Below, piece after piece: positions 2,641 to 64,000 of a stretch of 64,000 bases of DNA. The notes below the pieces were generated by a model. That model had not been told where the DNA came from. It saw nothing but the letters and a program-made list of their open reading frames with translations, and did no database searches. Position 1 is the first letter of the stretch, and the number at the start of each line of letters is the position of its first letter. This DNA comes from Alphaproteobacteria bacterium (GTDB lineage Bacteria; Pseudomonadota; Alphaproteobacteria; Rs-D84; CACZYB01). The stretch spans positions 139,347-203,346 of the forward strand of contig JAEDDP010000001.1 in the NCBI GenBank assembly GCA_016297965.1, read 5' to 3'. The position numbers and the translations under genes were made by a program.

Positions 2641-2720
2641 TTTTTCGCCTTTTATTATTTATTGTAATATCCATATATTATAGATATTTAAAAATGAAAG
2701 GCAAGGGGAAAAGTGGGTTT

Positions 2721-9874: not shown

Positions 9875-10174
9875 TTAGTTTCTGTAAAGGCTTTTTACAT
9901 CGGGTGCATAGTATAGGGCGTCAATTAACTCATCAATAGTTTCAATTTTGAATTTGTCGGTTGTTTCTGCCAAATCCTTTGAGAAGGTAGCCTCTAAATT
10001 TGCCAAGAAGTCCATCCAACTCCAATAATCCATACCAAGAGTTGAATAATTTTTATCCTTTATAGAAGCAAAGTTTTCATCAGGCAATACCTGACCGTCC
10101 TCGGTTAGGAGTTTTTGAATTTCCTGTGAGTAAAGCTTTTTTCTATTATACATTTGTTTTGTTTTATTAGTCAT
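9875..10174 (-). CDS. Hypothetical protein
   Basis: 99-aa ORF upstream of acpP on the same strand; no recognisable motif. Confidence 0.4.
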   Translation of the reverse strand: MTNKTKQMYNRKKLYSQEIQKLLTEDGQVLPDENFASIKDKNYSTLGMDYWSWMDFLANLEATFSKDLAETTDKFKIETIDELIDALYYAPDVKSLYRN

Positions 10175-10313
10175 AATACCAAATTATAGACAATATTCGT
10201 TTAATTTGTCAATAATTATTTTTTATGGCTAAAAATTTCTCCTTATCGGGTGTAAGTATCTATTGCAAAACTTATTTTTTCAAGTAAATTATATTATATA
10301 AGGAGAATTTGGT

Positions 10314-26471: not shown

Positions 26472-27977
26472 TTAATCATCCAAAGTTGTAAATTCTGTTT
26501 GGTTTAGTTCCTTATTTTCTTCCCTTCCAAGCATCTTTTTAAGGGCAGTTTTTGAAAGGTTTACGTTTTCATTTTCCATATCGTAATCAATTGTTTTATA
26601 TTCAATGGTTGCATTTTCACCAACACCGGTTTTGCGAACCTCAATTATACGATATTGTTTTTTCTCGCTTTCCTCAGGTGTGAGAAGAAGGTATTTCCCG
26701 GTTTTAAGTTCAGATTTCTTTTCCTTTAATGTACTATCGGAAATATCACCGCTTAGTGTAAGTACGGCAATGCTTGTATCCGTATTAACATCTTCATCTT
26801 TTACACCACCAATGATACCTTCACGGGAAAGCTTATTCATACGGTTTTCACCAACGATAACAGATGCCTGGTTAAAGGTCCAGGTTTGTGCGCCCTTTAA
26901 TCCACCCTGTTCATCAATTGCCCGAGCAAGAGATGACTTTTCACGGGAAACCTGAATATCGGTTTGATGCATTGTTGCGGTATATTCGGAACCGCAGGCA
27001 GGTCCAACTTCGTTTAGGTGAGTGTTTAGAATTTGGGTTATTTTTACCTCCCAATCGTTGGATTTGTCAGTAATTTTTCCATCCAAATAATTACTTACAA
27101 CTTCAATTCCATCGGCAGGGCTTAATTTTCCGGCATTTATATATAGTCGTGGAATGTCGGTTGGGAAAATTATACCCTTTTGTTCCTCATCCCCAAAGAG
27201 TTTGGTCCATTTTGCTTGGAGACCAGCAATTCCGCAAAGGCTGTTTAACTTGCTTTCAATAGAATCAACCGCACCGGTTGCACGTCCGGCGGAAAGTACG
27301 GCCTGAAAACATTCGTTTGATGCCTCCGCCACAACACGTTTAAGTTTGCAATTTGGTGAATTTGCACCGGTTATTTGGTAATCATCGGCAATGCTTTTTG
27401 TTAAATCCTCAGTAAACATATAGCAAGCCTTATCATACTCATACGCCTGACCTTCAATATATACGGTAATGCCAGAAGTATCAAAGTTTATGAAAAGGTC
27501 GTTTGCATCATAACATTTAAGTTTACCATCTTCGCCAATGCCGTTGTTGAAATAAGATTCATCACAGGCATTTTGAATTGCATTTATAAGGGCATTTCCA
27601 CAAGCCTTTCTTTGTGAAACGGCAAAAGAATCACTCTTTTTAATACATTCATTCGTGTTTGATGCATTTATTATATAATTTGTTTCATCAACACATTCGC
27701 ATGCGGTTCCGGCGGAATTTTTTCTGGCATTTGCACCACATTTAAGGAAAGCAGTTGTTTTTTTACCGATACATGCCGGATCGCCAGGTTTTGCACACTT
27801 TATTGTCTTTATTCCGGATGTTGTATTTTTAAGTCCGGTGGAAGTTTGTGCGTTCGTTGCGGAATAAATTGAACGGGCGGATCTTCGGTTTGTACGTGCA
27901 GAATAAACATCACTACCAATTAGAAGTAATGGTAGAGCCATAATTTTTATATAAAAGTTTTTGTTCATTTTTTTCAT
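26472..27977 (-). CDS. Secreted Cys-rich protein, paralog family member
   Basis: Signal peptide then SARTNRRSARS motif; shares the ACG...SLARAIDEQGGLKG block with the other family members. Confidence 0.65.
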   Translation of the reverse strand: MKKMNKNFYIKIMALPLLLIGSDVYSARTNRRSARSIYSATNAQTSTGLKNTTSGIKTIKCAKPGDPACIGKKTTAFLKCGANARKNSAGTACECVDETNYIINASNTNECIKKSDSFAVSQRKACGNALINAIQNACDESYFNNGIGEDGKLKCYDANDLFINFDTSGITVYIEGQAYEYDKACYMFTEDLTKSIADDYQITGANSPNCKLKRVVAEASNECFQAVLSAGRATGAVDSIESKLNSLCGIAGLQAKWTKLFGDEEQKGIIFPTDIPRLYINAGKLSPADGIEVVSNYLDGKITDKSNDWEVKITQILNTHLNEVGPACGSEYTATMHQTDIQVSREKSSLARAIDEQGGLKGAQTWTFNQASVIVGENRMNKLSREGIIGGVKDEDVNTDTSIAVLTLSGDISDSTLKEKKSELKTGKYLLLTPEESEKKQYRIIEVRKTGVGENATIEYKTIDYDMENENVNLSKTALKKMLGREENKELNQTEFTTLDD

Positions 27978-51469: not shown

Positions 51470-51508
51470 TTTTTGATGTAATAGAATAAAAATGTTTGCA
51501 TTTTGTTC

Positions 51509-51537
51509 TTGACATTTTGCAAAAAATAGTGTATAGT
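51509..51537 (+). promoter_or_regulatory. Near-consensus sigma-70 promoter (TTGACA - 17 nt - TATAGT)
   Basis: ttgacattttgcaaaaaatagtgtatagt. Confidence 0.5.
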
Positions 51538-51543
51538 GCATAT

Positions 51544-51610
51544 CAACTAATGGGATAACTGTATCCTGTTTGGTTATTGTCTCTCTTTCATTTCTTGAAA
51601 GAGTTTTTTT
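51544..51610 (+). ncRNA. Candidate ~65-nt sRNA at the edge of the phage-derived island
   Basis: Starts ~7 nt after the promoter above; internal hairpin ggataactgtatcc; ends in intrinsic terminator ctctttcatttcttgaaagag + T7; no ORF. Confidence 0.35.
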
Positions 51611-51628
51611 ATATTAAAAACAGAAAGA

Positions 51629-51922
51629 ATGGAAATAAATATGGAAACAATCAATTTATCCTGGTGGATAAGTGTTGTTGAAATTCCATTATTTGTAGGG
51701 GCATTCTGGCTTCTTAAAAATAATATATCGTCTTTGGATTGTGCAGTGAAGGATGTTGAGGCAAAAACGAAAAAAGACACAATTGATTTAATTGAAAGTC
51801 TTGCGTCTTTTCGTGTGGATGTTGCTATGAATTATGCGTCCATTTCCTGTTTAAAAGATGTGGAAAATCGGCTAACGGCTCATCTGTTAAGGATTGAGGA
51901 AAAAATTTCAGGGGGAAAATAG
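51629..51922 (+). CDS. Membrane-anchored coiled-coil protein (i-spanin-like topology), part of the putative lysis cassette
   Basis: 97 aa; single N-terminal TM followed by a charged helical region; position immediately upstream of the endolysin-like gene. Confidence 0.35.
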   Translation: MEINMETINLSWWISVVEIPLFVGAFWLLKNNISSLDCAVKDVEAKTKKDTIDLIESLASFRVDVAMNYASISCLKDVENRLTAHLLRIEEKISGGK

Positions 51923-51924
51923 TA

Positions 51925-52368
51925 ATGATAGTTGAAAACAGAGAAAAATTTATTAAACAGTTAAAGTTAAGCTCTAATGTTATAAAATTTATTTTTGCAA
52001 AAAGTTTATTTTCATTGGGTGAAATGGTTTCCGAAAAATTACTTTTTGCGGTGGCATCGGTTGTGATGAACCGCTTTGTGTATGAGGCGGAAATTTCGGA
52101 TACCCAACCTGATATTATTAAAATTTTGACTTCAACTTCATTATTTCCTGAATGGAAAAATACAAAATATATGGATGGAATAGATGTTTCATCAAACAGG
52201 TTTAAAAAATGTTTTGGTGTTGGTGTTTTGGCATTGTCCGGAAAATTAAAGGATAGTGCAAGGCAATCTATTGCATTTATGAAAAAAGGAAAAAGTTCAT
52301 TGTGGGCAGATGGGCTTTTGCCATGTTTAGTTATTGATGACTATGCTTTTTATAATAATTGTGCCTAA
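51925..52368 (+). CDS. SleB/CwlJ-family (Hydrolase_2) cell-wall hydrolase, probable phage endolysin
   Basis: AVASVVMNRF...LFPEW resembles the conserved AVxxVVxNRV...FP core of the Hydrolase_2 family used by alphaproteobacterial phages and GTAs. Confidence 0.45.
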   Translation: MIVENREKFIKQLKLSSNVIKFIFAKSLFSLGEMVSEKLLFAVASVVMNRFVYEAEISDTQPDIIKILTSTSLFPEWKNTKYMDGIDVSSNRFKKCFGVGVLALSGKLKDSARQSIAFMKKGKSSLWADGLLPCLVIDDYAFYNNCA

Positions 52369-52385
52369 AAAAATAATATGGAGGT

Positions 52386-52610
52386 TTGTGTATGAATATA
52401 ATTACAGGTGGATTTTTAAGTGGTAAGAAAACTTTGATTACCGCGATTGTAAGCCTTATATCCTGTGTTGCGGCATATCTTGTTGGCGATGTGGGTTTGG
52501 TTGATTTGATTCAGGTTATCGTGCCTTTGTTTGGTGTGATTTTTATGGGACGAGAGATTTCAGAAAATCTTAAATCAGATTTGGAAAAACTTAATTCTAA
52601 AAAAAAATAG
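52386..52610 (+). CDS. Holin-like small membrane protein
   Basis: 74 aa, two TM helices and a charged C-terminal tail, adjacent to the endolysin-like gene. Confidence 0.4.
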   Translation: MCMNIITGGFLSGKKTLITAIVSLISCVAAYLVGDVGLVDLIQVIVPLFGVIFMGREISENLKSDLEKLNSKKK

Positions 52611-52732
52611 GACGGTTTTATTTGTTGGGATTTTTAAGGCTGGTATTTAAAAGACGACATTTCAAATATCTTTTGATACTTGATTTGTTTGATTGGATAA
52701 AAAATAAATTTGTTAAAAAGGGGTAATGTATT

Positions 52733-53326
52733 ATGGATAATCAAAAAGTAAAGGTAAATCTTTTGGGTGAAGAAAATGGTAATGGTACAGATGTTCTTGA
52801 TTTGGCACTTAAAACTAATGGTGCGGAAAAGGAATATAATATCATTCTTCATAACAGATTTTTGACTATTGATAAAGAGGTAAATAAAAGGTTAAGGTCT
52901 GCGGGATTTACCAATGAACAGGCACAACTTGTTTACGATTTGGCAGGTGAAATTATGATACCAAAGATTCAAGAAGTGGTTGAAGAATTTCGTGCATATC
53001 GCGAGCTTGCAAAATTGGAAAATTATTTTGGTGGTGAAGAACGTTTTGATGAAATATCAAGACAGATTTCTATGTGGGCGGAAAAAAATGTTCCACCGGA
53101 AATTTATCAATCTTTGAACTCTTCTTTTTATGGTGTGATTGCATTGTATAATATGATGACTTCCAATGAACCAAAAGTTATGGCAAAGTCTGGGGAAACA
53201 CAGGAAGTTATCACCGAGAAAAAATTGAAAGAGATGATGCAAGATCCAAAATATTGGAGAGATGGTGATAAGGATTTTATTAAAAAAGTTGATGACGGTT
53301 TTAAATTTTTATATGGTGATGAATAA
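52733..53326 (+). CDS. T7 gp9-like capsid scaffolding protein
   Basis: Acidic helical 197-aa protein; C-terminus MMQDPKYWRDGDKDFIKKVDDGF parallels the T7 gp9 C-terminus AMSDPRYRTDANYRRQVEQKVIDSNF; located upstream of the capsid gene. Confidence 0.6.
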   Translation: MDNQKVKVNLLGEENGNGTDVLDLALKTNGAEKEYNIILHNRFLTIDKEVNKRLRSAGFTNEQAQLVYDLAGEIMIPKIQEVVEEFRAYRELAKLENYFGGEERFDEISRQISMWAEKNVPPEIYQSLNSSFYGVIALYNMMTSNEPKVMAKSGETQEVITEKKLKEMMQDPKYWRDGDKDFIKKVDDGFKFLYGDE

Positions 53327-53437
53327 AATTTTTATTAAAAAAAATTGAAAAAATTTTATTTTTTTATATTTTGCTGTTGCAGTATTGCTTTTTGTGTGGT
53401 ATATTGTATCTGTCTTTTGTTTAATAAGGAGAGAGAT

Positions 53438-53902
53438 ATGTTTAAAAGTATAATTAAAAGAGCTTCTAAACCAACCGCAAAAAAGGTTGCCGTAAAATCA
53501 GAAGAAAAAAAAGTTGTTGCTAAAAAAACAACAGTTGCAAAAAAGCCAGTAGCTAAAAAAGTTGCAGTTAAAAAAACAGCAGTTGCAAAGAAACCAGTTG
53601 CTAAAAAAGTAACAGTTAAAAAAGCGACAGTTGCAAAGAAACCAGTTGCTAAAAAAGTTGCAGTTAAAAAAACAACAGTTGCAAAGAAACCAGTTGCTAA
53701 AAAAGTGACAGTTAAAAAGGCAACAGTTGCAAAGAAACCAGTTGCTAAAAAAGTAACAGTTAAGAAAGCAACAGTTGCAAAGAAACCAGTTGCTAAAAAA
53801 GTAACAGTTAAAAAAATCGTTGTAAAGAAAGCTTCTGTTAAGGTTGCATCAGTTAAAAAAGCTGTGAAACCTGTTGCAAAAAAAAAAGTAGCAAAGAAGT
53901 AG
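53438..53902 (+). CDS. Histone H1 / Hc1-like lysine-rich repeat protein
   Basis: SD aaggagag before ATG; about six tandem 16-aa repeats KKPVAKKV(T/A)VKK(A/T)TVA encoded by 48-bp DNA repeats. Confidence 0.65.
   Translation: MFKSIIKRASKPTAKKVAVKSEEKKVVAKKTTVAKKPVAKKVAVKKTAVAKKPVAKKVTVKKATVAKKPVAKKVAVKKTTVAKKPVAKKVTVKKATVAKKPVAKKVTVKKATVAKKPVAKKVTVKKIVVKKASVKVASVKKAVKPVAKKKVAKK
53515..53830 (+). repeat. 48-bp tandem coding repeats (about 6 copies) inside the H1-like gene
   Basis: gttgcaaagaaaccagttgctaaaaaagt(a/g)acagttaaaaaagc(g/a)aca recurring with a 48-bp period. Confidence 0.8.
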
Positions 53903-53910
53903 AAGTTTCT

Positions 53911-54471
53911 TTGGTAGTTTCTAATCCTAACAAGGATAAGAAAGAGGTTGGTGAAAATAAGAAAACATCCTTTTTCGGTTCTTTGTTAGGATTTTTTTAT
54001 AATCATACAAAGGGAATTATAAAAACAATTTTAATACTTTCAGTATTGGTTGCATTTACAACTTCGTTTATGAAAGAATTAGAAGTGTATGCGGATATGC
54101 GTTTTGCAATGAATCCTATTGAAATTATTTTTATTGGTTTTGTTGATGCTGTTTTTAATCTTGTAAAATACTTTATACCTTTCCTTTTTGTATGCTTGAT
54201 TATTAAATTTATTATGATTAAATCTAGGAAGTTAAAGGTTGAATACATATTTAACAGACAATTTAAAATGCAAATCTTGATTGCCTTTTTGCTTTCGTTT
54301 GCATTTGCAGTTTTGTTTTATACTGATGTGTTGGCGATTGCCACATATTCACCACAACTTGTGAAATCATCGGTTGATATTTTTATGTTGTCATTCTTTT
54401 CAATACTTTTGACATTTACATCTTTGTTTGGTTTGTTGGATGGTGTTGATACCGTGATTTCAAAGAAATAG
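53911..54471 (+). CDS. Hypothetical polytopic membrane protein (moron between scaffold and capsid genes)
   Basis: 186 aa, 4 predicted TM helices. Confidence 0.45.
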   Translation: MVVSNPNKDKKEVGENKKTSFFGSLLGFFYNHTKGIIKTILILSVLVAFTTSFMKELEVYADMRFAMNPIEIIFIGFVDAVFNLVKYFIPFLFVCLIIKFIMIKSRKLKVEYIFNRQFKMQILIAFLLSFAFAVLFYTDVLAIATYSPQLVKSSVDIFMLSFFSILLTFTSLFGLLDGVDTVISKK

Positions 54472-54583
54472 TTAAGTTCTGGATTAAATTATACTTTTGT
54501 CCGTCCCTTTTTGGGGCGGATTTTTTTTATGGGCGAAGTTAAATTTGCCCTTTTCGTTTAATTAAAATATAGGAGATTTATAT

Positions 54584-55414
54584 ATGTCAGTTTCTATTGA
54601 TAAAGTGTTTATAAAACAATTTGAAGCGGATGTTCATCTTGCTTTTCAACAAATGGGAACAAAACTTCGTTCCACAGTTAGAACAAAAAATGATGTGAAG
54701 GGAAGTTCAACTACATTCCAAAAAATTGGAAAGGGTATTGCCAGTGTGAAGGCAAGACATGGACTTGTTCCTGTTATGAATTTGGATCATACACCGGTTG
54801 AATGTGTATTGACAGATTATTATGCGGGTGATTGGGTTGATGAACTTGATGAATTAAAAACAAATGTTGATGAACGTCGTGTTGTTGCATCTGCCGGTGC
54901 GTATGCCCTTGGTCGCAAAAGTGATGAACTTATCATTGCAGAATTAAACAAGGCAACAAATTCAGTTCAGACATCATCAGCGGGTCTTACAAAATTAAAG
55001 ATTTTTGAGGCATTGGAATTTTTGAATGCAAATGATGTGCCAGATGATGGTCAAAGATTTGGTGTTGTTGGTGTTCATCAATGGAACGAACTTTTAAGTA
55101 TGGATGAATTTTCAAAGGCAAGTTATGTCGGCGATACCTATCCTTTACTTAAAGGTACAGAATCAAGAAAATGGATGGGCGTAAATTGGATTTTGCATAA
55201 TTCACTTCCATGCAGTGAAGGTGAAAGAAGTTGTTTCATTTATCATAAAAATGCGATTGGTCATGCATCTGGATGTGAAGTTAAAACAGATATTTCATGG
55301 CATGGTGAAAGGGCAGCTCACTTTATTTCAAATTGTATGAGTCAAGGAGCAACGCTTATTGATAATCAAGGAATTGTGAAAATTATGTGTGATGATGACG
55401 CGGTTATTGCCTAA
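54584..55414 (+). CDS. T7 gp10-like major capsid protein (short form)
   Basis: Pattern VFIKQFEADVHLAF...RSTVR...F......DELKTNVDERRVVASAGAYALGRKSDELIIAELN parallels T7 gp10A LFLKVFGGEVLTAF...RHMVR...DAMNHYDVRSEYTSQLGESLAMAADGAVLAEIA; follows the scaffold gene and precedes the gp11/gp12 homologs. Confidence 0.6.
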   Translation: MSVSIDKVFIKQFEADVHLAFQQMGTKLRSTVRTKNDVKGSSTTFQKIGKGIASVKARHGLVPVMNLDHTPVECVLTDYYAGDWVDELDELKTNVDERRVVASAGAYALGRKSDELIIAELNKATNSVQTSSAGLTKLKIFEALEFLNANDVPDDGQRFGVVGVHQWNELLSMDEFSKASYVGDTYPLLKGTESRKWMGVNWILHNSLPCSEGERSCFIYHKNAIGHASGCEVKTDISWHGERAAHFISNCMSQGATLIDNQGIVKIMCDDDAVIA

Positions 55415-55449
55415 AATAAAACAAAAATAAAAAAAGGAGAAAAAATATT

Positions 55450-55710
55450 ATGAGTATGAATTCAAAAAATTTGTCGGTTCTTGCCTATTCAAACGGTTTT
55501 ACATTTTGGCATTATAAAACAGAAGATGCAAAGGATGCGGTTGTTGCGGCGAATTATTTTAATGATGTTGCAAATATTTTTAATGTTGGTGATTTGATTG
55601 TGGCATCAATGGATATTGCAGGTACAATGACAACCGGAATGTTTGCGGTTACTTCAATTGCTTCTGGTGTTGTTTCAATTTCAAGTATTATTCCATCTGC
55701 AAGTGTGTAA
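55450..55710 (+). CDS. Small hypothetical virion-module protein
   Basis: 86-aa ORF with RBS between the capsid and gp11-like genes. Confidence 0.35.
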   Translation: MSMNSKNLSVLAYSNGFTFWHYKTEDAKDAVVAANYFNDVANIFNVGDLIVASMDIAGTMTTGMFAVTSIASGVVSISSIIPSASV

Positions 55711-55753
55711 ATAAAATAAATATCTTTTAATTTCAAGGTTCCATTTTTTTTGG

Positions 55754-56338
55754 GTGGAACCTTTTTTTAATGAGGAGAAAGAGATGAGTTTTTCAAGTAT
55801 AGATTTGTGTTCAAAGGCACTGAATAAAATTGGTGCGAATTCTATTGTTTCATTTGATGAGGGAACACCGGAGGCGGAAATATGTGGAAGTTTGTATTCT
55901 ACATTAAAGTATAAATTGCTTTCAATTTTTTCATGGGGGTTTGCAACATCAATTAAAAAACTTAATCAAGTTGTTGAAGAAGAGCAAAATGAGTATGGTT
56001 ATACATTTGCTTTGCCAAGTGATTTTATAAGGGCTTTGAAAATATCCTCAAATTCTCCTTATAAAATTTTGGGAAATTATTTATATTGTAATGATGAAGA
56101 GGTGGTATTGACCTATATTGCAAATGTTGGTGAGGAATATTTTTCACCACTTTTTGTATCGGCCTTTATTTATTTGATGGCGGCGGAATTGTCTGTATCA
56201 CTTCTTAACGATACATCAAAATATTCGTTGTTTTACAAATTGTTTAATTCGGAAATACGACAGGCAAAATCAATAGACAGTCAACAGGAAACACCAAAGG
56301 TTTTGGGCGATTTTCCGTTGATTTCAGCGAGAGGTTAG
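55754..56338 (+). CDS. T7 gp11-like tail tubular protein A
   Basis: ~190 aa (T7 gp11 is 196 aa); SIDLCSKALNKIGANSIVSFDEG...LLSIFSWGFA parallels T7 gp11 [20 protein letters not shown]...IQSRGWTF. Confidence 0.6.
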   Translation: MEPFFNEEKEMSFSSIDLCSKALNKIGANSIVSFDEGTPEAEICGSLYSTLKYKLLSIFSWGFATSIKKLNQVVEEEQNEYGYTFALPSDFIRALKISSNSPYKILGNYLYCNDEEVVLTYIANVGEEYFSPLFVSAFIYLMAAELSVSLLNDTSKYSLFYKLFNSEIRQAKSIDSQQETPKVLGDFPLISARG

Positions 56339-56348
56339 GTAGGTAATT

Positions 56349-58250
56349 ATGAAGCAAACTATGAGTATAAGTACTTTTAATTATGGTGAAATTTCATCTG
56401 GGCTTTTTGGTCGGGGAAATTTTGATGCATATAAAAGTGCGGCAATGAAGCTTATGAATATGGATGTTATTCCGACAGGTGGTATTGAACGACGGGATGG
56501 ACTTAGGTATGTTGATACCCTTTCATCAAGGGGAAAAATTGTTTCGTTTGAATATTCTTCGGATAAGGAGTTGATATTATTTTTTGGAAATAATGTTATT
56601 GATATTTATGAAGATGATGTGAAGGTTAAAAGCCTTGTTTCCCCATACAAAGTTGATGATTTGAAAAATATTTGTTGGTGTCAAAAGGCAAACCAGCTTT
56701 TTATCGTGCATCCGGATATTGAACCGCAAATTATAAAATATGATGCGTTGATGGATGAATGGAGTATTTTTCCGTGGGTGTATGCGACAAATGAAAAATT
56801 TGGATATTCTTGTCAACCGTTTAACAGGTTTGATGATACCGTTGGTATTTCAATTACTCCATCGGCAAAGACCGGAGAAATAACACTTAAATCCAGTGCA
56901 AAACTTTTTACCGCAAATTATGTTGGGGTAAGGTTGAATTTGGATGGTGGTGAGGTGCTTATAACCTCAATTGTATCGGATGTAAGTGCAAAGGCGACGG
57001 TAAAGTCAAATTTGACGGCTGTTACGGCGGATGCAAACTGGCAAGAACAGACTTTTTCCGCATTTCGTGGTTATCCAAAAAGTATTGCATTCCATCAAAA
57101 CAGATTGGTTATTGGTGGTTCAAAAAGTCTTCACAACAGATTGTGGCTTTCGTGTACGGGAAAGCTTTTGAATTTTGATTTGGGGACTGGGCTTGACGAT
57201 GAAGCAATAGAGTTTGATATTTTTTCGGATAAGGTTAATGAAATTGTTGGGGTATTTTCGGGACGACATTTACAGGTGTTTACATCGGATGCGGAATGGA
57301 TGGTGTCCGGTGTGCCACTTACTCCGTCAAATATTTCCGTTTCACAACAAACAAAAATTGGGTCCGTTTCGGACAGGTATATTCCACCAAAGTTGGTTGA
57401 AGGTTCAACAATATTTGTTGCAAGAAACAAGCGGGAAATTCGTGAATTTTTCTATGGTGATTTAACGGAAAATTATTCGTCGGAAGATTTGATTTTGCTT
57501 TCAAATCATCTTTTATGTTCGCCAATAGAACAAGATTACAGTATTAAAAAAAGGACGCTTTATGTTGTGCAAAATGATGGAACACTTGCTGTTTTGATTA
57601 TAAACAAGACCAACGGAATAAATGCATGGGTGCAATATCAAACGGACGGAAAATTTATTTCTGTTGCCGTGTTGGTTGATAAAGTTTATGCGATTGTTGA
57701 ACGAGATGGTACCTACTTTTTGGAAATTTTTGATGGGGATGTTTCATCGGATTGTTCATCAAAATATTGTTTTGAAAATGAGGTGGAAGAAATTGAAAAT
57801 CTTTCACGATTTAATGGAAAAGAGGTCGTTGTAAATGCGGATGGCTTTATTTATGAAATGGTTGTATCGGATGGTAAAATCAATTTGCCGAAACCTTCAA
57901 AAAATGTTGTTGTTGGTTTGTCCTTTACTCATTTGTATTGTCCTTTACCTGTGTTTATCAATTCAAGTTATTTGCCAAAGGCGGTACGATTATTAGAGTT
58001 GAACCTTCGGGTGATGGAAACTCCTCTTTTACAGGTGGATACCGGTGGCGGACTTAAAAACATAACGTTTTTGAATTTTGACAGTGGGAACAAGTTTGAT
58101 GAAAGTCTTCCTTGTTTTACCGGTGATTTAAAAATTCGTGGGTATGGATTTATACGAAATTATACAATACCACTTTTTAAAATACAGGGATGTAAACCGT
58201 ATAAATTAAAAATTTTGAATGTGTCAATGTTAATTGATGTAATAAGATGA
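56349..58250 (+). CDS. T7 gp12-like tail tubular protein B
   Basis: 633 aa; block AFHQNRLVIGGSKSLHNRLWLSCTGKLLNFD parallels T7 gp12 FFFRNRLGFLSGENIILSRTAKYFNFYP; N-terminal ISxxNxGEISxG pattern similar to gp12 SIKNLKGGISQQ. Confidence 0.6.
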   Translation: MKQTMSISTFNYGEISSGLFGRGNFDAYKSAAMKLMNMDVIPTGGIERRDGLRYVDTLSSRGKIVSFEYSSDKELILFFGNNVIDIYEDDVKVKSLVSPYKVDDLKNICWCQKANQLFIVHPDIEPQIIKYDALMDEWSIFPWVYATNEKFGYSCQPFNRFDDTVGISITPSAKTGEITLKSSAKLFTANYVGVRLNLDGGEVLITSIVSDVSAKATVKSNLTAVTADANWQEQTFSAFRGYPKSIAFHQNRLVIGGSKSLHNRLWLSCTGKLLNFDLGTGLDDEAIEFDIFSDKVNEIVGVFSGRHLQVFTSDAEWMVSGVPLTPSNISVSQQTKIGSVSDRYIPPKLVEGSTIFVARNKREIREFFYGDLTENYSSEDLILLSNHLLCSPIEQDYSIKKRTLYVVQNDGTLAVLIINKTNGINAWVQYQTDGKFISVAVLVDKVYAIVERDGTYFLEIFDGDVSSDCSSKYCFENEVEEIENLSRFNGKEVVVNADGFIYEMVVSDGKINLPKPSKNVVVGLSFTHLYCPLPVFINSSYLPKAVRLLELNLRVMETPLLQVDTGGGLKNITFLNFDSGNKFDESLPCFTGDLKIRGYGFIRNYTIPLFKIQGCKPYKLKILNVSMLIDVIR

Positions 58251-58263
58251 AAGGATTAAAAAA

Positions 58264-58683
58264 ATGGGTACAAGTGTGGCTGTGGCAAGTGTTATTGCCA
58301 AAACAGCATTGGATTACAAAGATGCAAAAGATGAAAAAAAACAACTTAAAAAAGAAAAAGAGTTGAAAGAAGCGGAAATAAAAAAGAAAAAGGAAATTTA
58401 CGAGCAGGAAAAAACAGACCTTTTGAAGGCAAAAATTGCATCAAAAAAGGCAAGTCTTGCCGCAAATGGACTTGGGACTACGGATGCTTCGTCGGCGGTG
58501 TTATTGGGAAGTATGGAAAAGGAGACCGATGAAGATATTGCAAACAATGAATATTTTTCGGATTTAAATCTTTCGGCAAATGAAATGAATTATAATTACA
58601 AGAAAAATAAAAACTTGCTTGCACGGCGAAAGATGGGACTTAATGCCATAAATTCCGCATCGGATGGGCTTAAATTGTTATAA
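58264..58683 (+). CDS. Small K/E-rich coiled-coil protein in the gp13 (internal virion protein A) position
   Basis: 139 aa (T7 gp13 is 138 aa); assignment by position and size only. Confidence 0.3.
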   Translation: MGTSVAVASVIAKTALDYKDAKDEKKQLKKEKELKEAEIKKKKEIYEQEKTDLLKAKIASKKASLAANGLGTTDASSAVLLGSMEKETDEDIANNEYFSDLNLSANEMNYNYKKNKNLLARRKMGLNAINSASDGLKLL

Positions 58684-58686
58684 AAA

Positions 58687-59286
58687 ATGAGCAGGAAATT
58701 AAGTTTTGAGAAATTTTTGATAAATTGGAATAAGGTTCAGGAGGTCAAAACTCCGGAACATCATTTGCGTATTGCAAGGTGGCTTGAAAATATTTATTCA
58801 TCCGAGACAAGGCGCGGGCTTTTGATGGCATTCCGTAGTAGTGGTAAATCAACAATTGTTGGAGTGTTTTGTGCGTGGCTTTTGTATAAAAATCCGAATA
58901 CGCGAATTTTGGTTGTGGCGGCGGATACTGTGTTGGCACGAAAGATGGTTAGGAATGTAAAGCGGATTATTGAAACGAATCCCTTGCTTTGTGATATTTG
59001 TCCGAAAAAGAAGACAGAGTGGGCGTCGGGAAGTTTTACCGTTGTTCGGGATAAGGAGCTTCGTGATCCGTCAATGCTTGCCGTTGGATTGATGTCAAAT
59101 GCCACGGGAAGCAGGGCGGATGTGATTATTTGCGACGATGTTGAGGTGCCAAAAAATTGTGATACATACCAAAAAAGAATCGATTTGAGGGAGAAATTGT
59201 TGGAATTTAACTTCATTTTGGTGCCGGATGGGATGCAAATTTTTATCGGAACTCCGCATACTTTGGATACTATTTACAAAGTTTAA
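58687..59286 (+). pseudogene. Truncated terminase large subunit (ATPase domain only, nuclease domain missing)
   Basis: Walker A SSGKST, Walker B ADVIICDDVE, coupling motif FIGTPHTLDTIY; 199 aa whereas intact TerL is ~450-600 aa; ORF ends just before the CU-rich hairpin elements and tRNA-Phe. Confidence 0.65.
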
Positions 59287-59370
59287 AGAAAAAAGTTGGG
59301 AATGAAGTGTTTGATTTTATGGGGAAAATATTCTTTGTTTGTACAAATAAAAATTTTTCACAAAAATATA

Positions 59371-59398
59371 TTGACAAATGAAATGAAATTTGTATAAT
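59371..59398 (+). promoter_or_regulatory. Consensus sigma-70 promoter (TTGACA - 16 nt - TATAAT) with A/T-rich upstream element
   Basis: ttgacaaatgaaatgaaatttgtataat. Confidence 0.5.
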
Positions 59399-59404
59399 GA
59401 AGTC

Positions 59405-59533
59405 AATTCGTTAATACGAAAAAGAAATTTGCCGAGACGACCCCTCATTTCGGCAAATCTGGTCAAAGGCCAGCAACCCCCTAAGTCATTCCCTCCTTAT
59501 TTTCTCTCTCTCCTCGACTTAGGGGATTTTTTT
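59405..59533 (+). ncRNA. Candidate ~130-nt sRNA with a CU-rich (anti-Shine-Dalgarno-like) terminator loop
   Basis: 5' hairpin ttgccgaga...ttcggcaa; terminal 10-bp stem cccctaagtc/gacttagggg enclosing loop attccctccttattttctctctctcctc; T8 run. Confidence 0.4.
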
Positions 59534-59839
59534 TATTTGTAAAATAAGTTTAAAAAAATGAATTTTTTGTTTGCTATTTTGTTTTTAAATTGGTAAAAAT
59601 ATTTTCGTTGTTTGAAAACATCAGAATCGATTCCTTTTTTAATGTAAAAGAATCGGTTTTTTGGTGGTTTTTTAATGGTGTTTTATGCTTGACAATCGTA
59701 TCTTTACAAAAGATTCTTTGAAAATGCAACTGTTTGAATTTACAGATGAATTTATATTTGTCTTTGTTAAATAAAGTTGCCAAAAAAATAAACACTTGAC
59801 TTTTTTTGTCAATGGTATTAAGAATCTTCGCATAAAGCA

Positions 59840-59943
59840 AATTTAATAGTTATGTTCTTTTAAGTTTGTTTGAAAGTTATTCCCTGTTGCGTTCCTTTTC
59901 TCTCCTTTCCTCCTTCTCTCCTCGCAACGGGGAATTTTTTTTA
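59840..59943 (+). ncRNA. Second CU-rich-loop hairpin element homologous to 59477-59533 (sRNA or terminator module)
   Basis: stem tccctgttgcg/cgcaacgggga enclosing loop ttccttttctctcctttcctccttctctcct; T8 run; weak upstream promoter-like TTGACT at 59796. Confidence 0.35.
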
Positions 59944-60000
59944 TCAAAAGTGTTAAAAAGTGCAAAAAAAATCCCCACATAAAGTGAGGATGAATTTTTA

Positions 60001-60076
60001 TGGTGGCGAGGGGCAGAATCGAACTGCCGACACAAGGATTTTCAGTCCTTTGCTCTACCAACTGAGCTACCTTGCC
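60001..60076 (-). tRNA. tRNA-Phe (anticodon GAA), CCA encoded
   Basis: minus-strand read ggcaaggtagctcagttggtagagcaaaggactgaaaatccttgtgtcggcagttcgattctgcccctcgccacca: cloverleaf with D-arm gctc/gagc, anticodon loop ctGAAaa, T-arm ggcag-ttcgatt-ctgcc, 3' CCA. Confidence 0.9.
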
Positions 60077-60207
60077 ACAAGATGTGTAAATTTATAACCT
60101 ATATTTTCACAAAACGCAACAAAAAAGTTTACTTTTTGTAATAATAGCTTGTTTTGATGACAAAATTATGGTATTATTGTACATATAGTTTTAGGAGAAA
60201 TTGGGAT

Positions 60208-62064
60208 ATGAGAAAAGTTTTTGTTTCGGTGTTGGTGCTTTCCGCTTTTGTGGCGAATATGGATTGTTATGGTGCAAGGAAAAGAAAATCATCCAAAAAT
60301 GCCAGAACGGCAAGCATTCGTGAACGTTCTGTAAAAAGGATGGTTTCGTCAACGGCGTCTTCGTATTCATTGGCAACATCATCGTACAGTTCTTCACTTC
60401 TTGAAAACCTTTCCCGATTTCAAAGTTCCGTTTTTGGTGAAAAGTTGATGTATGGAAAGTCGTATGCTCTTCAAGATATGTTTACGATTGCGACACATTC
60501 CTATTATTACAAAAATGGGTCGCAGGCGGAATTAAAGGAACAATTTTGTTTCGGTCCATATATGAAACTTACCGGTGTTGGGGCAAGCAGTTCCGCAACA
60601 TCTTCGGTGGTGGAAGCAAACGGTTCGTTGCAATGTGTTGATTTGGAAAAGGATACAATTTATTCTCTTTCATTATTGGATGCGACCGATGGGCAAATTG
60701 AAAATGCACTTCATACGTCTTCGGTGTCCGGTGTGGTAAGTGGAGACCAAAGGGTTGCCTATGTTTCGCGGTCCGGAAATCCGATTGCAACACAATATTT
60801 TAATTCCGAAAAATATATTGATGTAAGTGAGTATGCAAAGAAAATTAACGAAGCGGTTGCAATGGCGAAGTCTTCGTGTGGTTCATTTAAAAGTGATATG
60901 GATAAGTTGAAAAGTCAACTTGGGTTTGGGGTTGCACTTTCATCCGGAATTGGTGTGGCATTGTCGGGGGCAAGTACCGGTGTTGGTATTTACAATATAA
61001 AAAAGACAAATGAAGTTCAATCCACAATTAAGAAACAAGAAAATATGCAAAAGAACCTTGAAGAAATTGCAAGGTCAAGTGATACCGGTTATCAGGAGGT
61101 GAAGGATAAAAATTCAGGAAAGTTTGATGTAAGTCAAAAGGCAGAGAAAGAGATTATTGCAGATAAAAGAACTTATAAAACAAAGAATGAAATATCGAAA
61201 ATTACGGATTTAAGAAGTTTGAATGCAACTTTGGTGAATAAAGAGAGTTGTGAACATATTGAAAGTTTTAAAGAGTATTGTGATAAATTGAATAATAAAT
61301 GTAAAGATTTGCCTTCCAGTGAGAATGTTAACGATTATTTGAAAGGAATGCAAGCCTATTCCGGTGGTGATGAATATTATGAAGGATGTTTTTCTGGTTC
61401 TGATGAAAACTTAACATTTGTAGATAGTATTTATTATGAATTGAAGGATGGGGAAAAAACTGATAAAGAATGTACAGGTTCTGATAAAAGTAAGTGTACA
61501 GAAGAACCTAAAAAAAATTGTGTTGAGTTAAAGAATGATTTTAATGCTTTTGAAAACTTAACATTTGTAGATAGTATTTATTATGAATTGAAGGATGGGG
61601 AAAAAACTGATAAAGAATGTACAGGTTCTGATAAAAGTAAGTGTACAGAAGAACCTAAAAAAAATTGTGTTGAGTTAAAGAATGATTTTAATGCTTTGTC
61701 GGAAGATGCAAAAAGAAGATGGATTTTCCAAAAGGATTATAATACTTATTCAGATTTAAAGAAACAATGTGATGTTGCGAATGGTAAGGTGGATACGGTT
61801 AATAAGTCAAGCGAACAATACAAAAAGTATGTTGACAGTGTTGATTCATCAATGAAGACATCCCGTAATTTGGATATTGTACAGGCAGGATTAAGTGGTG
61901 CGTCCACAATTGCCAGTGGTGTTTCTCTTGGGTTTTCCGTTTCCGCAATTGGTACGGTTGGTGATGCGATTGATGAACTTTCAAAATGTAATGCTGCCAT
62001 TTCAAAGTTAAGAAATGTTTATGGTGAATACAAGGCGGAATTAGAGGCGGATGAGGAGGAATAA
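60208..62064 (+). CDS. Secreted/surface protein with RS-rich post-signal motif and an exact 49-aa internal duplication
   Basis: SD taggagaaa; signal peptide then GARKRKSSKNARTASIRERS; Ser-rich tract; C-terminal Gly/Ala/Ser-rich ASGVSLGFSVSAIG domain shared with the next gene. Confidence 0.65.
   Translation: MRKVFVSVLVLSAFVANMDCYGARKRKSSKNARTASIRERSVKRMVSSTASSYSLATSSYSSSLLENLSRFQSSVFGEKLMYGKSYALQDMFTIATHSYYYKNGSQAELKEQFCFGPYMKLTGVGASSSATSSVVEANGSLQCVDLEKDTIYSLSLLDATDGQIENALHTSSVSGVVSGDQRVAYVSRSGNPIATQYFNSEKYIDVSEYAKKINEAVAMAKSSCGSFKSDMDKLKSQLGFGVALSSGIGVALSGASTGVGIYNIKKTNEVQSTIKKQENMQKNLEEIARSSDTGYQEVKDKNSGKFDVSQKAEKEIIADKRTYKTKNEISKITDLRSLNATLVNKESCEHIESFKEYCDKLNNKCKDLPSSENVNDYLKGMQAYSGGDEYYEGCFSGSDENLTFVDSIYYELKDGEKTDKECTGSDKSKCTEEPKKNCVELKNDFNAFENLTFVDSIYYELKDGEKTDKECTGSDKSKCTEEPKKNCVELKNDFNALSEDAKRRWIFQKDYNTYSDLKKQCDVANGKVDTVNKSSEQYKKYVDSVDSSMKTSRNLDIVQAGLSGASTIASGVSLGFSVSAIGTVGDAIDELSKCNAAISKLRNVYGEYKAELEADEEE
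61405..61698 (+). repeat. Perfect 2 x 147-bp in-frame tandem duplication inside the 60208-62064 gene
   Basis: gaaaacttaacatttgtagatagtatttattatgaattgaaggatgggg...aatgattttaatgcttt present twice consecutively (61405-61551, 61552-61698). Confidence 0.85.
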
Positions 62065-62065
62065 A

Positions 62066-62749
62066 ATGAAACAAGTAAGTAAAATATTGTTGTGTTTGGC
62101 GGTGTCGGTTTATTCCTTTGATACAATGGCGAAGTTGTCATCAAATTCCGTTAAAAATCAGGTTGTGAATATTGAGTATGCACTTTCAAAGTGTAATTTC
62201 AGTGCGAACGTGCTTAACGAAATTAAAAGTAAGACCGTGGGCGGGGCTGTTTCGTCAGGCGTTGCGACCATTGGTTCCGGTGTGGCAACGACAACCTCTA
62301 TTATCGCGGCGGTGAAAAGTTCAAAGTATGAGTATGAGTCAACGAATAGAGACAATTCCGCTGGGACAACAAATACTACCAATACGACCACTACCGAGAA
62401 TGAAGGTGAAAATCAGAATGAAGGTGAAAATCAGAATGAAGGTGAAAATCAGAATGAAGGTGGAAAAAAGAACGGAGGTGGAAAAAAGAACGGAGGAAAA
62501 GGAAACACGACAAATAATACAAGTAGATATGATACCTCAACAGAAGACAGGCGTGATGGTGTGAAAAAACTTAATTCTTCGTTGAAAAATTTGCGGGTGG
62601 CGTCGGCGATTGCGTCGGGTGTGGCAACCGGTGCGAACCTTGTGACCGTGACATTAAGTGGGACTTCGGTTTCGCAACTTGGGAAATTGATGGATGATGC
62701 CGATGATTGTGAAGGCGCACTTAATTCAATTATTATTTCGGAAAAATAA
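62066..62749 (+). CDS. Secreted/surface protein with hexapeptide (EGENQN) repeats and a C-terminal domain shared with the upstream gene
   Basis: SD gaggagga; signal peptide; Gly/Ala/Ser-rich AVSSGVATIGSGVATT and AIASGVATGANLVTVTLSG segments; 18-bp repeats. Confidence 0.65.
   Translation: MKQVSKILLCLAVSVYSFDTMAKLSSNSVKNQVVNIEYALSKCNFSANVLNEIKSKTVGGAVSSGVATIGSGVATTTSIIAAVKSSKYEYESTNRDNSAGTTNTTNTTTTENEGENQNEGENQNEGENQNEGGKKNGGGKKNGGKGNTTNNTSRYDTSTEDRRDGVKKLNSSLKNLRVASAIASGVATGANLVTVTLSGTSVSQLGKLMDDADDCEGALNSIIISEK
62402..62497 (+). repeat. 18-bp tandem repeats (3 perfect + 2-3 diverged copies) encoding EGENQN / GGKKNG
   Basis: gaaggtgaaaatcagaat x3 then ggtggaaaaaagaacgga x2. Confidence 0.85.
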
Positions 62750-62956
62750 AAAACGAATCTTTGTTTAAATAATAATAAAAATCCGGTTTGAAAGTCAATT
62801 TCAATGCCGGTTTTTATTTTGTGCTTGGTTTGTTTTCCTATATTCATAAAAATAATTGGAAAAATTTGTATTTTTAGTTTTTATCTTCTTAACTTTTACC
62901 TTTTTTTATGGTATCATTAAGGAATGAAGTCAAATAAGGAAGTAAGGGGAGAAAAA

Positions 62957-64000
62957 ATGATTGATGGAAATTTCGGATATAAATCAGGTGATGACGATAT
63001 TCAAAATTTTATTCCAAAAATTACGGTTATGGGTGTTGGCGGTGCAGGTTGTAATGCCGTTAATAATATGATTGCCCAAGGAATTGATGGTGTTGATTTT
63101 ATTGTGGCAAATACCGATGCGCAATCCTTACTTCAATCAAAGGCACCAAAAAAAATTCAACTTGGTAAACAAACAACAAAGGGATTTGGTGCGGGTTCCC
63201 GACCAGAGGTGGGACAAAAGGCCGCCGAGGAATCATCCAGTGAAATTACAGATGCGATAAAAAATGCAAACATTTTGTTTTTGACCGCCGGAATGGGTGG
63301 TGGAACCGGAAGTGGTGCGATGCCGGTTATTGCCGAACTTGCCCGTGAAAAGGGTATTTTGACCGTTGCAATTATTACTACTCCATTTGAATTTGAAGGA
63401 AAGAAAAAAGAAAAAATTGCACGTGAGGCATTGGAAAGATTGGTTCCAAATGTGGACTCCTATATCGTTCTTCCAAACCAAAATCTTTACCGTGTTGTTG
63501 ATAAACAAATGACCTTTTTGAATGCGTTTAAGGTGTCCGATAATGTCCTTTATGAAGGGGTAAGAAATATTACTGATTTGATACGGATACCGGGGACAAT
63601 CAACCTTGATTTTGCGGATATTCGTGCGGTTATGGAAAACAGTGGTCGTACGATTATTGGTACTTCTATTCAATCCGGTGTTGATAGGGCGATAAAGGCG
63701 GTTGATGGAGTCCTTATGAACCCAATGCTTCAAGGAAATGATGTGCGTGGGGCAAGGTCGGTCCTTGTAAACATTACGGCAAATCCGGAAAACCTTTCGT
63801 TGGATGAACCGGAAACTATTATGAATAATATTCGTTCTTCTATTGATAGTGATGAAACAAATTTTTATTTGGGAACTTGTTTTGATGTGTCAATGGGGGA
63901 TGATTTAAAGGTGGCGATTATTGCGACCGGACTTAATGAGGCGAGTGCCGGTTCGTTTATTCCATCGGCACATAAATATACTTCATCTTCGTTTACAGGC
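62957..64000 (+). CDS. ftsZ: Cell division GTPase FtsZ (3'-truncated by window end)
   Basis: GVGGAGCNAVNNM, tubulin signature GGGTGSG, T7 loop NLDFADIR; ORF runs off the window; no ftsA upstream. Confidence 0.9.
   Translation, partial: MIDGNFGYKSGDDDIQNFIPKITVMGVGGAGCNAVNNMIAQGIDGVDFIVANTDAQSLLQSKAPKKIQLGKQTTKGFGAGSRPEVGQKAAEESSSEITDAIKNANILFLTAGMGGGTGSGAMPVIAELAREKGILTVAIITTPFEFEGKKKEKIAREALERLVPNVDSYIVLPNQNLYRVVDKQMTFLNAFKVSDNVLYEGVRNITDLIRIPGTINLDFADIRAVMENSGRTIIGTSIQSGVDRAIKAVDGVLMNPMLQGNDVRGARSVLVNITANPENLSLDEPETIMNNIRSSIDSDETNFYLGTCFDVSMGDDLKVAIIATGLNEASAGSFIPSAHKYTSSSFTG

Follow-up and report, generated by a model that had tools for sequence, protein, structure and literature searches.

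What kind of element is formed by two hairpins that carry pyrimidine-rich loops of about 30 nt, lie one behind the other downstream of a phage-type terminase gene, and what might such loops recognize? We analyzed this locus in a 64 000-nt stretch of bacterial chromosome (in the following 'the window'; 35.6% GC) from an alphaproteobacterium of the order Rs-D84. The window encodes RpoD, ThrRS, TolB and PBP1A, and since RpoD is among them, sigma-70 promoters are relevant here. Judged from comparative sequence analysis, the two hairpins belong to independent RNA genes (units 1 and 2), in which structure is under selection and loop sequence very strongly so. We consider it fairly likely that they are two trans-acting anti-Shine–Dalgarno (anti-SD) small RNAs (sRNAs), siblings in a family specific to the reduced-genome gut Alphaproteobacteria of this order. 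Gene anatomy and evolution support the sRNA interpretation well, and the anti-SD mechanism is plausible, with indirect support. The features concerned are as follows (positions within the window).

59371–59398, plus strand: unit 1 promoter, TTGACA (59371–59376), 16-nt spacer and TATAAT (59393–59398), 12 of 12 consensus positions
59405–59534, plus strand: predicted unit 1 transcript of ~130 nt, from a start deduced from the −10 box to the U run
59427–59458, plus strand: internal hairpin of unit 1, arms UUUGCCGAG and UUUCGGCAAA, conserved apical ACGACCCCUCAU
59478–59525, plus strand: terminal hairpin of unit 1, 10-bp stem and 28-nt loop, followed by A and by T8 (59527–59534)
59540–59795, plus strand: region upstream of unit 2, presumed regulatory, with repeated AAGAATC and GAATCGATTC (GANTC) motifs
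59796–59825, plus strand: unit 2 promoter, TTGACT (59796–59801), 18 nt and AAGAAT, 9 of 12 consensus positions
59832–59942, plus strand: predicted unit 2 transcript of ~110 nt, variable 5′ hairpin (59835–59871) plus terminal hairpin
59879–59935, plus strand: terminal hairpin of unit 2, 13-bp stem and 31-nt all-pyrimidine loop (59892–59922), T run to 59942
58687–59286, plus strand: terN, N-terminal ATPase half (199 aa) of a split T7-type large terminase, with weak terminase/P-loop Pfam matches
60001–60076, minus strand: tRNA-Phe(GAA), context only, convergent with unit 2, own terminator at 59991–59971

Anatomy and conservation of the two RNA genes

An earlier note on this DNA, made from the letters alone, had described a perfect TTGACA-16-TATAAT promoter at 59371–59398 and two hairpins with CU-rich loops of ~30 nt followed by T runs. 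Both descriptions were confirmed in the sequence, the loops measuring 28 and 31 nt. In a promoter scan across 58000–61000 the unit 1 promoter is the sole 12/12 match, and unit 1 starts ~85 nt past the stop codon of terN. While the note was right about this promoter, it had overlooked that unit 2 has a conserved promoter of its own (consensus CTTGACTTTTTTTGTC...TAAGAAT), the −35 box of which is overlapped by a palindrome TTGAC-N7-GTCAA. The terminal hairpin of unit 1 has the arms CCCCTAAGTC (5′, 59478–59487) and GACTTAGGGG (3′, 59516–59525) and encloses loop 1 (59488–59515, ATTCCCTCCTTATTTTCTCTCTCTCCTC; RNA AUUCCCUCCUUAUUUUCUCUCUCUCCUC), in which 26 of 28 positions are pyrimidines. Two additional conserved hairpins precede it. 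In unit 2 the arms are ATTCCCTGTTGCG (5′, 59879–59891) and CGCAACGGGGAAT (3′, 59923–59935), and the 31-nt loop 2 reads UUCCUUUUCUCUCCUUUCCUCCUUCUCUCCU as RNA. Both terminal hairpins have a 3′ module TCTCTCCTCG-N5-GGGRA-T8-AT in common, in identical register. Compared to dinucleotide shuffles, unit 1 has a minimum free energy of −40.9 kcal/mol with z = −5.9, and unit 2 reaches z = −6.7. The 32-nt pure pyrimidine run of hairpin 2 is the only run of at least 20 nt in the window, where about 1–1.5e-5 would be expected, and together with the two z-scores this excludes chance. Neither a hairpin scan nor covariance models detected further copies in the window; one weak match (R2, 26707–26743) lies inside a coding sequence.

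With respect to termination, the stems of 10 and 13 bp have GGGG/CCCC bases and are followed by T8 and T7–8, as in intrinsic terminators; the loops are longer than the 3–8 nt that are typical for such terminators. A terminator pattern scan matched only alternative short hairpins, in which the loop 3′ end pairs with the GGGGA arm; the loop 3′ end or AUUCCCU can likewise pair with the AGGGGAU arm. The covariation described below supports formation of the long stems rather than these short alternatives. Upstream of unit 2 we observed five GANTC sites within 59540–59840, the maximum for any 300-nt stretch of the window (16.7/kb versus 1.4/kb). This upstream region contains blocks that are conserved in 6 species, and it relocates and inverts jointly with unit 2 (~300 bp); similar GAATCG/CGATTC repeats stand upstream of unit 2 in the metagenome contig L143. 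Since GANTC is the CcrM methylation site of Alphaproteobacteria, control of unit 2 by the cell cycle or by methylation is conceivable.

For the analysis of conservation we used orthologs from GTDB genomes (L058, L059, L060, L062, L063 and L078; L061 stops inside unit 1) and from metagenome contigs found by a loop-2 21-mer (L143, L145, L147, L149, L154, L155 and L156). Altogether about 12 species or contigs, from gut Alphaproteobacteria with low GC and reduced genomes allied to Ca. Enterousia, carry both units. The metagenome scan with this 21-mer gave 24 matches, made up of 8 true homologs and 16 chance matches of low complexity, some of which are GA/CT inverted repeats on high-GC soil contigs. 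Ortholog-bearing organisms range from ~30 to 58% GC, with L078 and L143 far more GC-rich, and the flanks of both units are 73–91% identical between relatives. Same-species metagenome contigs are 99% identical over the intergenic region and hence uninformative on conservation. Loop 2 is 100% identical in all 13 distinct orthologs; loop 1 shows small differences in CT-repeat length and an altered 3′ end in L078, and nothing else. The stem and the apical ACGACCCCUCAU of the unit 1 internal hairpin are unchanged or carry G–U changes only in all orthologs, the GC-rich L078 included. The promoter of unit 1 is kept as TTGACA-16/17-TATAAT in 10 of 10 distinct orthologs (TATAGAAT in L078). Seven aligned copies of the unit 2 promoter have CTTGACTTTT and TA(A/T)GAATC in common; in L143 and L155 the −35 box is retained and the −10 region is different. 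U runs are retained in most orthologs, unit 1 of L078 having U4 only.

The stems themselves change in a concerted manner. In 10 orthologs of unit 1, 99% of the cells are paired over 27 pairs, and 6 pairs show double compensatory changes (1.8 in shuffles); such changes affect 5 of the 10 pairs of the terminal stem, and examples of stem covariation in this unit are CCCCUAAGUC/GACUUAGGGG, CCCUUAAGUC/GACUUAAGGG and CCCCCGGGUC/GAUCCGGGGG. For unit 2 (13 distinct orthologs) we found 95% of the cells paired and 9 double-change pairs versus 2.6 in shuffles, as exemplified by GUUGCG/CGCAAC and GUUGUA/UACAAC. Both units exceed all of the 500 shuffles and slid controls on paired cells as well as on double changes. 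Moreover, the unit 2 module is inverted relative to unit 1 in 7 loci (L058, L059, L145, L149, L154, L155 and L156). Own promoter and terminator, non-coding sequence, conserved structure and a conserved accessible seed make up the generic anatomy of a trans-acting sRNA, and we observed all of them here. The small-RNA genes suspected in the earlier note are borne out by conserved promoters and U-run terminators, covarying stems and invariant loops.

Two other readings of the locus were rejected. With regard to a type I toxin–antitoxin system or a small protein, no open reading frame (ORF) in 59290–60000 survives the observed indels; frames are broken by indels in the region upstream of unit 2 (59526–59880), and a 2-nt indel within the unit 1 loop of L062 and L063 argues against coding by unit 1. 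A cis-acting leader or riboswitch was rejected because there is no conserved co-oriented gene downstream, the tRNA gene is convergent and unit 2 inverts.

In the relatives we also observed inserts of ~90–170 nt, some of them tandemly duplicated, directly after the sRNA terminators (L060, 15306–15430; L062, 15630–15830; L063, 15650–15770 and 16225–16405; L143, 4205–4310), while the window is without any. Each closes with an incomplete second copy of the sRNA 3′ end, consisting of the 3′ part of the loop, the 3′ arm and the T run, and these copies resemble the att-site or target duplications of small mobile elements that insert at the ends of RNA genes.

Related loops and known RNA families

RNAs of matching design were found outside the ortholog set. 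One contig from a viral collection (L162) carries the same cluster of phage-like structural genes as the window, with the capsid 74% and terN 64% identical. It has one such RNA unit between terN and terC, the latter being a separate gene for the C-terminal RNaseH-like nuclease half of the terminase (~300 aa). This unit has a TTGACA-17-TATAAT promoter and three hairpins, the terminal one with a 13-bp stem that closes a 28-nt loop CUUUCUCCUUUCCUCCUUCUCUCCUUCU and is followed by a U run. Among Enterousia, 53 distinct species have an RNA of ~190 nt with two loops, located ~3.7 kb upstream of the capsid gene (for instance L094, 6055–6290, minus strand). It consists of a TTGACA-17-TATAYT promoter, hairpins A and B and then a separate canonical terminator. 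The loop of hairpin A (CUCCCUCCUACAUUCUCUCUCCUC) is similar to window loop 1 and invariant in 53 of 53 copies; that of hairpin B (AUUUCUUUUUCUCCUUUCCUUCCUUUC) is similar to window loop 2 and, apart from a few single-base differences in 4 of the 53 copies, unchanged. The stems of both hairpins covary heavily.

To a covariance model built from Enterousia hairpin B alone, unit 2 of the window is the best match in 294 kb (25.9 bits, E = 4e-4), and the same model retrieves every unit 2 ortholog and the L162 hairpin. The hairpin A model matched unit 1 hairpins weakly (E = 0.44–3.4), the window copy not being listed at E ≤ 10, so that the homology of loop 1 and loop A is a matter of visual similarity. 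The window units would accordingly represent two types of loop that are both present throughout the order, joined in one RNA in Enterousia and divided over two genes here, which is well supported for unit 2 and suggestive for unit 1. Duplicated paralogs, as the earlier note had called them, is too simple a description, since loop 2 is significantly similar to Enterousia type B and loop 1 is like type A by eye. Among viral contigs, scans with the shared 3′ module and with the unit 1 hairpin gave 0 matches, and the loop-2 21-mer gave a single one, L162, which carries the related cluster. This near-absence argues against an ordinary phage-borne element and makes the proposed acquisition with a phage unlikely.

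A scan against Rfam, one of the checks proposed in the note, did not place the units in a known family: at gathering thresholds, Rfam 15 found only tRNA, whether in the window, in the loci orthologous to it or in the Enterousia RNA. Under relaxed conditions (window 59200–60100, E ≤ 10) there was nothing credible, other matches being far below threshold. No regulatory RNA of Rs-D84 matched Rfam here, and none was found in the literature searched. The alphaR8 RNAs, which comprise MmgR (Sinorhizobium), SuhB (Sphingopyxis; Rfam suhB RF00519) and SisA–D (Caulobacter), have a single-stranded 10-mer UUUCCUCCCU downstream of a weak hairpin, plus a terminator; they often occur as sibling copies and act as anti-SD repressors (PMC12559287). 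The likeness to our units comprises the alphaproteobacterial host, a conserved single-stranded anti-SD pyrimidine motif, a Rho-independent terminator and sibling copies that are sometimes adjacent and differ in their promoters. Loop 2 deviates from the invariant 10-mer in one position (UUUCCUCCUU, 9/10), and loop 1 has UUCCCUCCUU. Among Enterousia the exact 10-mer occurs in loop B of L094 only, the 52 other copies having UUUCCUUCCU (most) or UUUUCUUCCU. However, in alphaR8 the motif is linear, with a weak hairpin before it and a separate terminator after it, whereas here it is inside an all-pyrimidine loop of 24–33 nt on a covarying stem of 10–13 bp, and in the window the hairpin itself is the terminator. 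Enterousia differs from the alphaR8 architecture as well, because the loop sits on a covarying stem of 8–11 bp before the separate terminator. Most alphaR8 copies adjoin a formylglutamate amidohydrolase gene, and no such linkage was seen here. Repression of mRNAs by alphaR8 RNAs through base pairing depends on Hfq. The suhB model reached 15.1 bits on the L094 RNA (threshold 41 bits) and had no match at E ≤ 10 in window 59200–60100. Because the Rfam threshold is missed and the architecture differs from alphaR8, we file the units as a separate family; on present sequence evidence it is a new family of a known kind, the anti-SD sRNAs, and possibly a very derived alphaR8 offshoot.

The earlier note had instead likened the loops to the cuckoo/CcsR type. 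CcsR1–4 of Rhodobacter and alphar14 (NfeR1) are alphaproteobacterial sRNAs in repeated copies with anti-SD hairpin loops of the CCUCCUCCC type, the cuckoo RNAs being one hairpin repeated in tandem behind a DUF1127 gene. This assignment does not hold, as the window loops are without CCUCCUCCC and three to four times longer, the gene upstream is terN, and neither cuckoo/CcsR nor alphar14 has an Rfam match in the window even at E ≤ 10. In RepG of Helicobacter pylori the C/U-rich loop of the terminator hairpin is the pairing site (PMC8295292). One hairpin thereby serves termination and target recognition, as we propose for the window units, but organism and sequence are unrelated and the target of RepG is a homopolymeric G repeat in one 5′ untranslated region instead of AG-rich SD-like sites. 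The RepG loop is also much shorter than the window loops. AbcR1 and AbcR2 (alphar15) are siblings that lie next to each other in tandem; both carry anti-SD motifs, and they are regulated differently (PMC8844928). To this extent they resemble the window units, two neighbouring siblings each with its own promoter and terminator; we detected no similarity in sequence or by covariance model, and the window units differ from each other in 5′ domain and loop type. AbcR seeds are short.

Candidate targets of the loops and the possibility of another partner

CCUCCUU and repeated CUCUCC in the loops are complementary to ribosome-binding sites of the AAGGAGG/GGAGAG type, and SD-like motifs precede 17 of 23 called genes of the same species. 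We therefore propose the following mode of action. Gene anatomy, conservation, structure, loop invariance and the complementarity to ribosome-binding sites can be read directly from the sequences; transcription, pairing in vivo and its outcome are inferred. The terminal hairpin would have a dual role, acting as intrinsic terminator by the G+C-rich base of its stem and the U run and displaying a single-stranded loop of 28–31 nt. The overlapping anti-SD motifs of the loop (CCUCCUU, CUCUCC) could pair with purine-rich sites (AAGGAG(A/G)GA...) of several mRNAs, which would block 30S binding and repress translation. Transcription of unit 1 is probably constitutive, given its consensus sigma-70 promoter, and that of unit 2, with a weaker promoter behind the conserved GANTC-rich region, is probably regulated.

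In the window, the longest perfect loop matches at translation starts are 10 nt and occur at two sites, ORF 53438 of the structural gene cluster and a flavodoxin gene outside the cluster. At ORF 53438 the site is AAUAAGGAGAGAGAU-AUG, and its core AAGGAGAGA is retained in the relatives where the site was seen. The product of this ORF (53438–53902) is rich in lysine and alanine and matches histone H1-like HC2 (PF07382, 42 bits versus a cutoff of 40). Inside the particle this protein may bind DNA or act as a scaffold. More extensive complementarity was observed in Enterousia. There, the RNA gene is divergent from a gene of 81 aa whose product has sub-threshold similarity to Cro/C1-type helix-turn-helix domains. 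The SD/start region of this gene complements loop A plus the 3′ stem over up to 15 nt without mismatch (CCAGAGGAGAGAGAA-AUG), or alternatively loop B over 10–13 nt. With CCUCC and CUCC present in the loops and a sister-lineage neighbour gene complementary to this extent at its ribosome-binding site, the anti-SD-like character noted earlier is supported, and this complementarity is the strongest hint at targeting that the sequences offer.

Several points weigh against the reading as anti-SD sRNAs. Complementarity of at least 10 nt at the Cro/C1-like gene was found in 44% of 52 species compared to 3.3% of 1414 other ORF starts, but this control is crude (first-ATG ORFs; species that are related and not independent). 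In the window itself the best matches at ribosome-binding sites reach 10 nt only. A window-wide duplex-energy scan found real loops no richer in strong sites than reversed loops; as it does not discriminate, it lends no support to target specificity in this genome, and we do not use it as evidence. A loop of 28–31 nt is atypical for an efficient intrinsic terminator, and shorter alternative hairpins can form. Finally, invariance over 24–31 nt exceeds the usual seed need of 7–12 nt and could mean that the partner is a protein, or else one very highly conserved nucleic acid.

The last point leads to the alternative that fares best, although we regard it as rather unlikely: the loops might bind a protein that prefers C/U (S1, a cold-shock or KH protein, Rho) or one G/A-rich RNA and titrate this partner instead of regulating many mRNAs. 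Invariance of the whole loop in up to 53 species would be explained in this way, the loops contain reiterated YCUCC units, and the generic duplex scan singled out no targets. A sponge within this class of RNAs is documented as well, since CrfA pairs with SisA–D and acts as a G/A-rich-loop sponge of alphaR8 sRNAs (PMC12559287). However, the 64-kb window and the related loci yielded neither a candidate protein nor a G/A-rich RNA that could be the partner, and enriched complementarity that lies exactly at the SD/start of a neighbour gene fits mRNA targeting better.

The structural gene cluster and the remaining alternatives

The position of the RNA genes raises a further possibility, namely a function for the genes that surround them. 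From ~51500 to 64000 and beyond, the window carries a cluster, also seen in L001–L008, of scaffold-like, capsid (PF19821), tail-fibre-like, split terminase, portal (PF12236) and tubulin/FtsZ-like genes. The capsid protein (54584–55414) is unchanged on many same-species metagenome contigs. Its relatives lie on 184 stretches among the species genomes of GTDB, the cluster being present in >180 species. Of these 184 loci, 80 were examined, and nearly all belong to uncultured (Alpha)proteobacteria, Rickettsiales or Candidatus Enterousia, which confirms the alphaproteobacterial host assumed before. Members of Rs-D84 are gut and rumen bacteria with genomes <1 Mb (PMC12306168). In every relative examined, again in bacteria with genomes <1 Mb, the gene order of the cluster is kept. 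Because relatives occur across the order in species genomes, the supposed 'prophage' is, by all its phylogenetic distribution indicates, a vertically inherited T7-like structural cluster, and it resembles a domesticated element, possibly a gene-transfer-agent-like one, more than a prophage.

The terminase gene, described earlier as a fragment, is not decayed, for terN is a conserved N-terminal half of 199 aa in the window and of 199–210 aa in all relatives checked. In the low-GC gut lineages the terminase is divided into these two genes; in most relatives terC lies several kb from terN, and in L162 the distance is ~270 nt (terN–terC region, L162 1555–3301). The GC-rich L044 has the terminase as a single ORF of 507 aa (2718–4241), and in L047 the parts are contiguous (~10072–11526). 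The RNA units are located at the point where the terminase is split. Between the two halves we observed one sRNA in L162, sRNAs together with the tRNA and further genes in the window clade and, in those Enterousia-type loci that were examined, ~3.3 kb of genes on the opposite strand. The tRNA-Phe gene is on the minus strand in the window and in L058–L060, on the plus strand in L062 and L063 and absent in L078, and its distance varies; such changes between syntenic loci indicate repeated local inversions around the sRNA genes. The description of the site as a prophage/tRNA-Phe junction had to be given up, as the tRNA is variable and the vertically inherited cluster continues past it.

Some further features of the cluster region were recorded. 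At 51510–51612 there is a TTGACA-17-TATAGT promoter with a hairpin and an intrinsic terminator (CUCUUUC/GAAAGAG + U7), just upstream of an ORF of 93 aa (51641–51922) that precedes the structural genes. The promoter-proximal part of this element matches in L058–L063, and the element might act as a leader of the attenuator type or be a further small RNA. Downstream of the tRNA, ORF 60208–62064 encodes a secreted-looking protein of 618 aa and contains a perfect 147-bp tandem duplication (61404–61697; 49 aa in two copies). The length of the protein differs between strains, with 321 aa and 565–591 aa in L001–L008, and an exact-sequence look-up found the 618-aa form not on record.

One way to connect the RNAs with the cluster, which we hold to be doubtful, is that they form the RNA arm that controls a domesticated, vertically inherited, T7-like and gene-transfer-agent-like particle cluster. 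By clamping their ribosome-binding sites, the loops would act on the Cro/CI-like switch gene and on structural genes of the cluster, and the sRNA pair, not a protein repressor alone, would decide on particle production; the RNAs are placed at the cluster border or at the terminase split point. A related idea seems quite unlikely to us, namely that the RNAs are dedicated riboregulators of the cluster, acting through its switch and structural genes, or RNA cofactors, for example of the packaging motor formed by the split terminase, without a part in general physiology. RNA genes do stand in or at the cluster in three arrangements: after terN in the window clade and L078; between terN and terC in L162, where the RNA gene is the only recognized feature; and at the left border of the cluster in Enterousia, divergent from the Cro/C1-like gene. 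The best ribosome-binding-site match in the window is moreover the cluster ORF 53438, with a site conserved across the order. Yet unit 2 of L143 has no cluster gene across 4 kb of upstream sequence, the other 10-nt match in the window is the flavodoxin gene outside the cluster, and the RNAs neither resemble known packaging RNAs nor match Rfam. Since the pairing mechanism is the same and merely the target set narrower, this explanation overlaps with the reading as general anti-SD sRNAs.

It is very improbable that the units only terminate or insulate transcription behind the terN operon, or are decaying remnants there, and have no function as separate RNAs. Both hairpins do lie downstream of terN and are followed by a U run, and partial copies of their 3′ halves end other short inserts in the relatives. 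Against this stands that an invariant loop of 28–31 nt is not needed for termination, that unit 1 has two more conserved hairpins before its terminator, and that both units have their own promoters, unit 2 being inverted relative to terN or relocated away from it. These promoters, rearrangements and invariant loops argue against a role restricted to terminating read-through from the terminase gene, which the earlier note had allowed for. Least of all do we expect elements that act as DNA at a rearrangement hotspot, such as sites of attachment or recombination, or polypurine/polypyrimidine tracts that form triplexes. Unit 2 inversion, tRNA flips and inserts flanked by duplicated sRNA 3′ ends would fit. 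However, the stems change in a compensatory way, the U runs are strand-specific and the promoters are conserved, which points to selection on a transcript; the duplications cover the gene 3′ end as with insertions into RNA genes, and the loops would be left unexplained.

For the biology of these organisms, the preferred reading as sibling anti-SD sRNAs would have several consequences. Rs-D84 and Enterousia are widespread in rumen and gut, uncultured and have genomes <1 Mb (PMC12306168). If true, a sibling sRNA family with invariant anti-SD loops of 24–33 nt would provide a handle on post-transcriptional control in Rs-D84, and it would be an extreme case of a terminator loop that serves as seed. 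The exact 21–31-mers are specific enough to be used as a family marker and can be searched for in rumen and gut metatranscriptomes. The constant association with a vertically inherited, split-terminase T7-like cluster, finally, allows one to test whether riboregulation is linked to a possibly domesticated phage.

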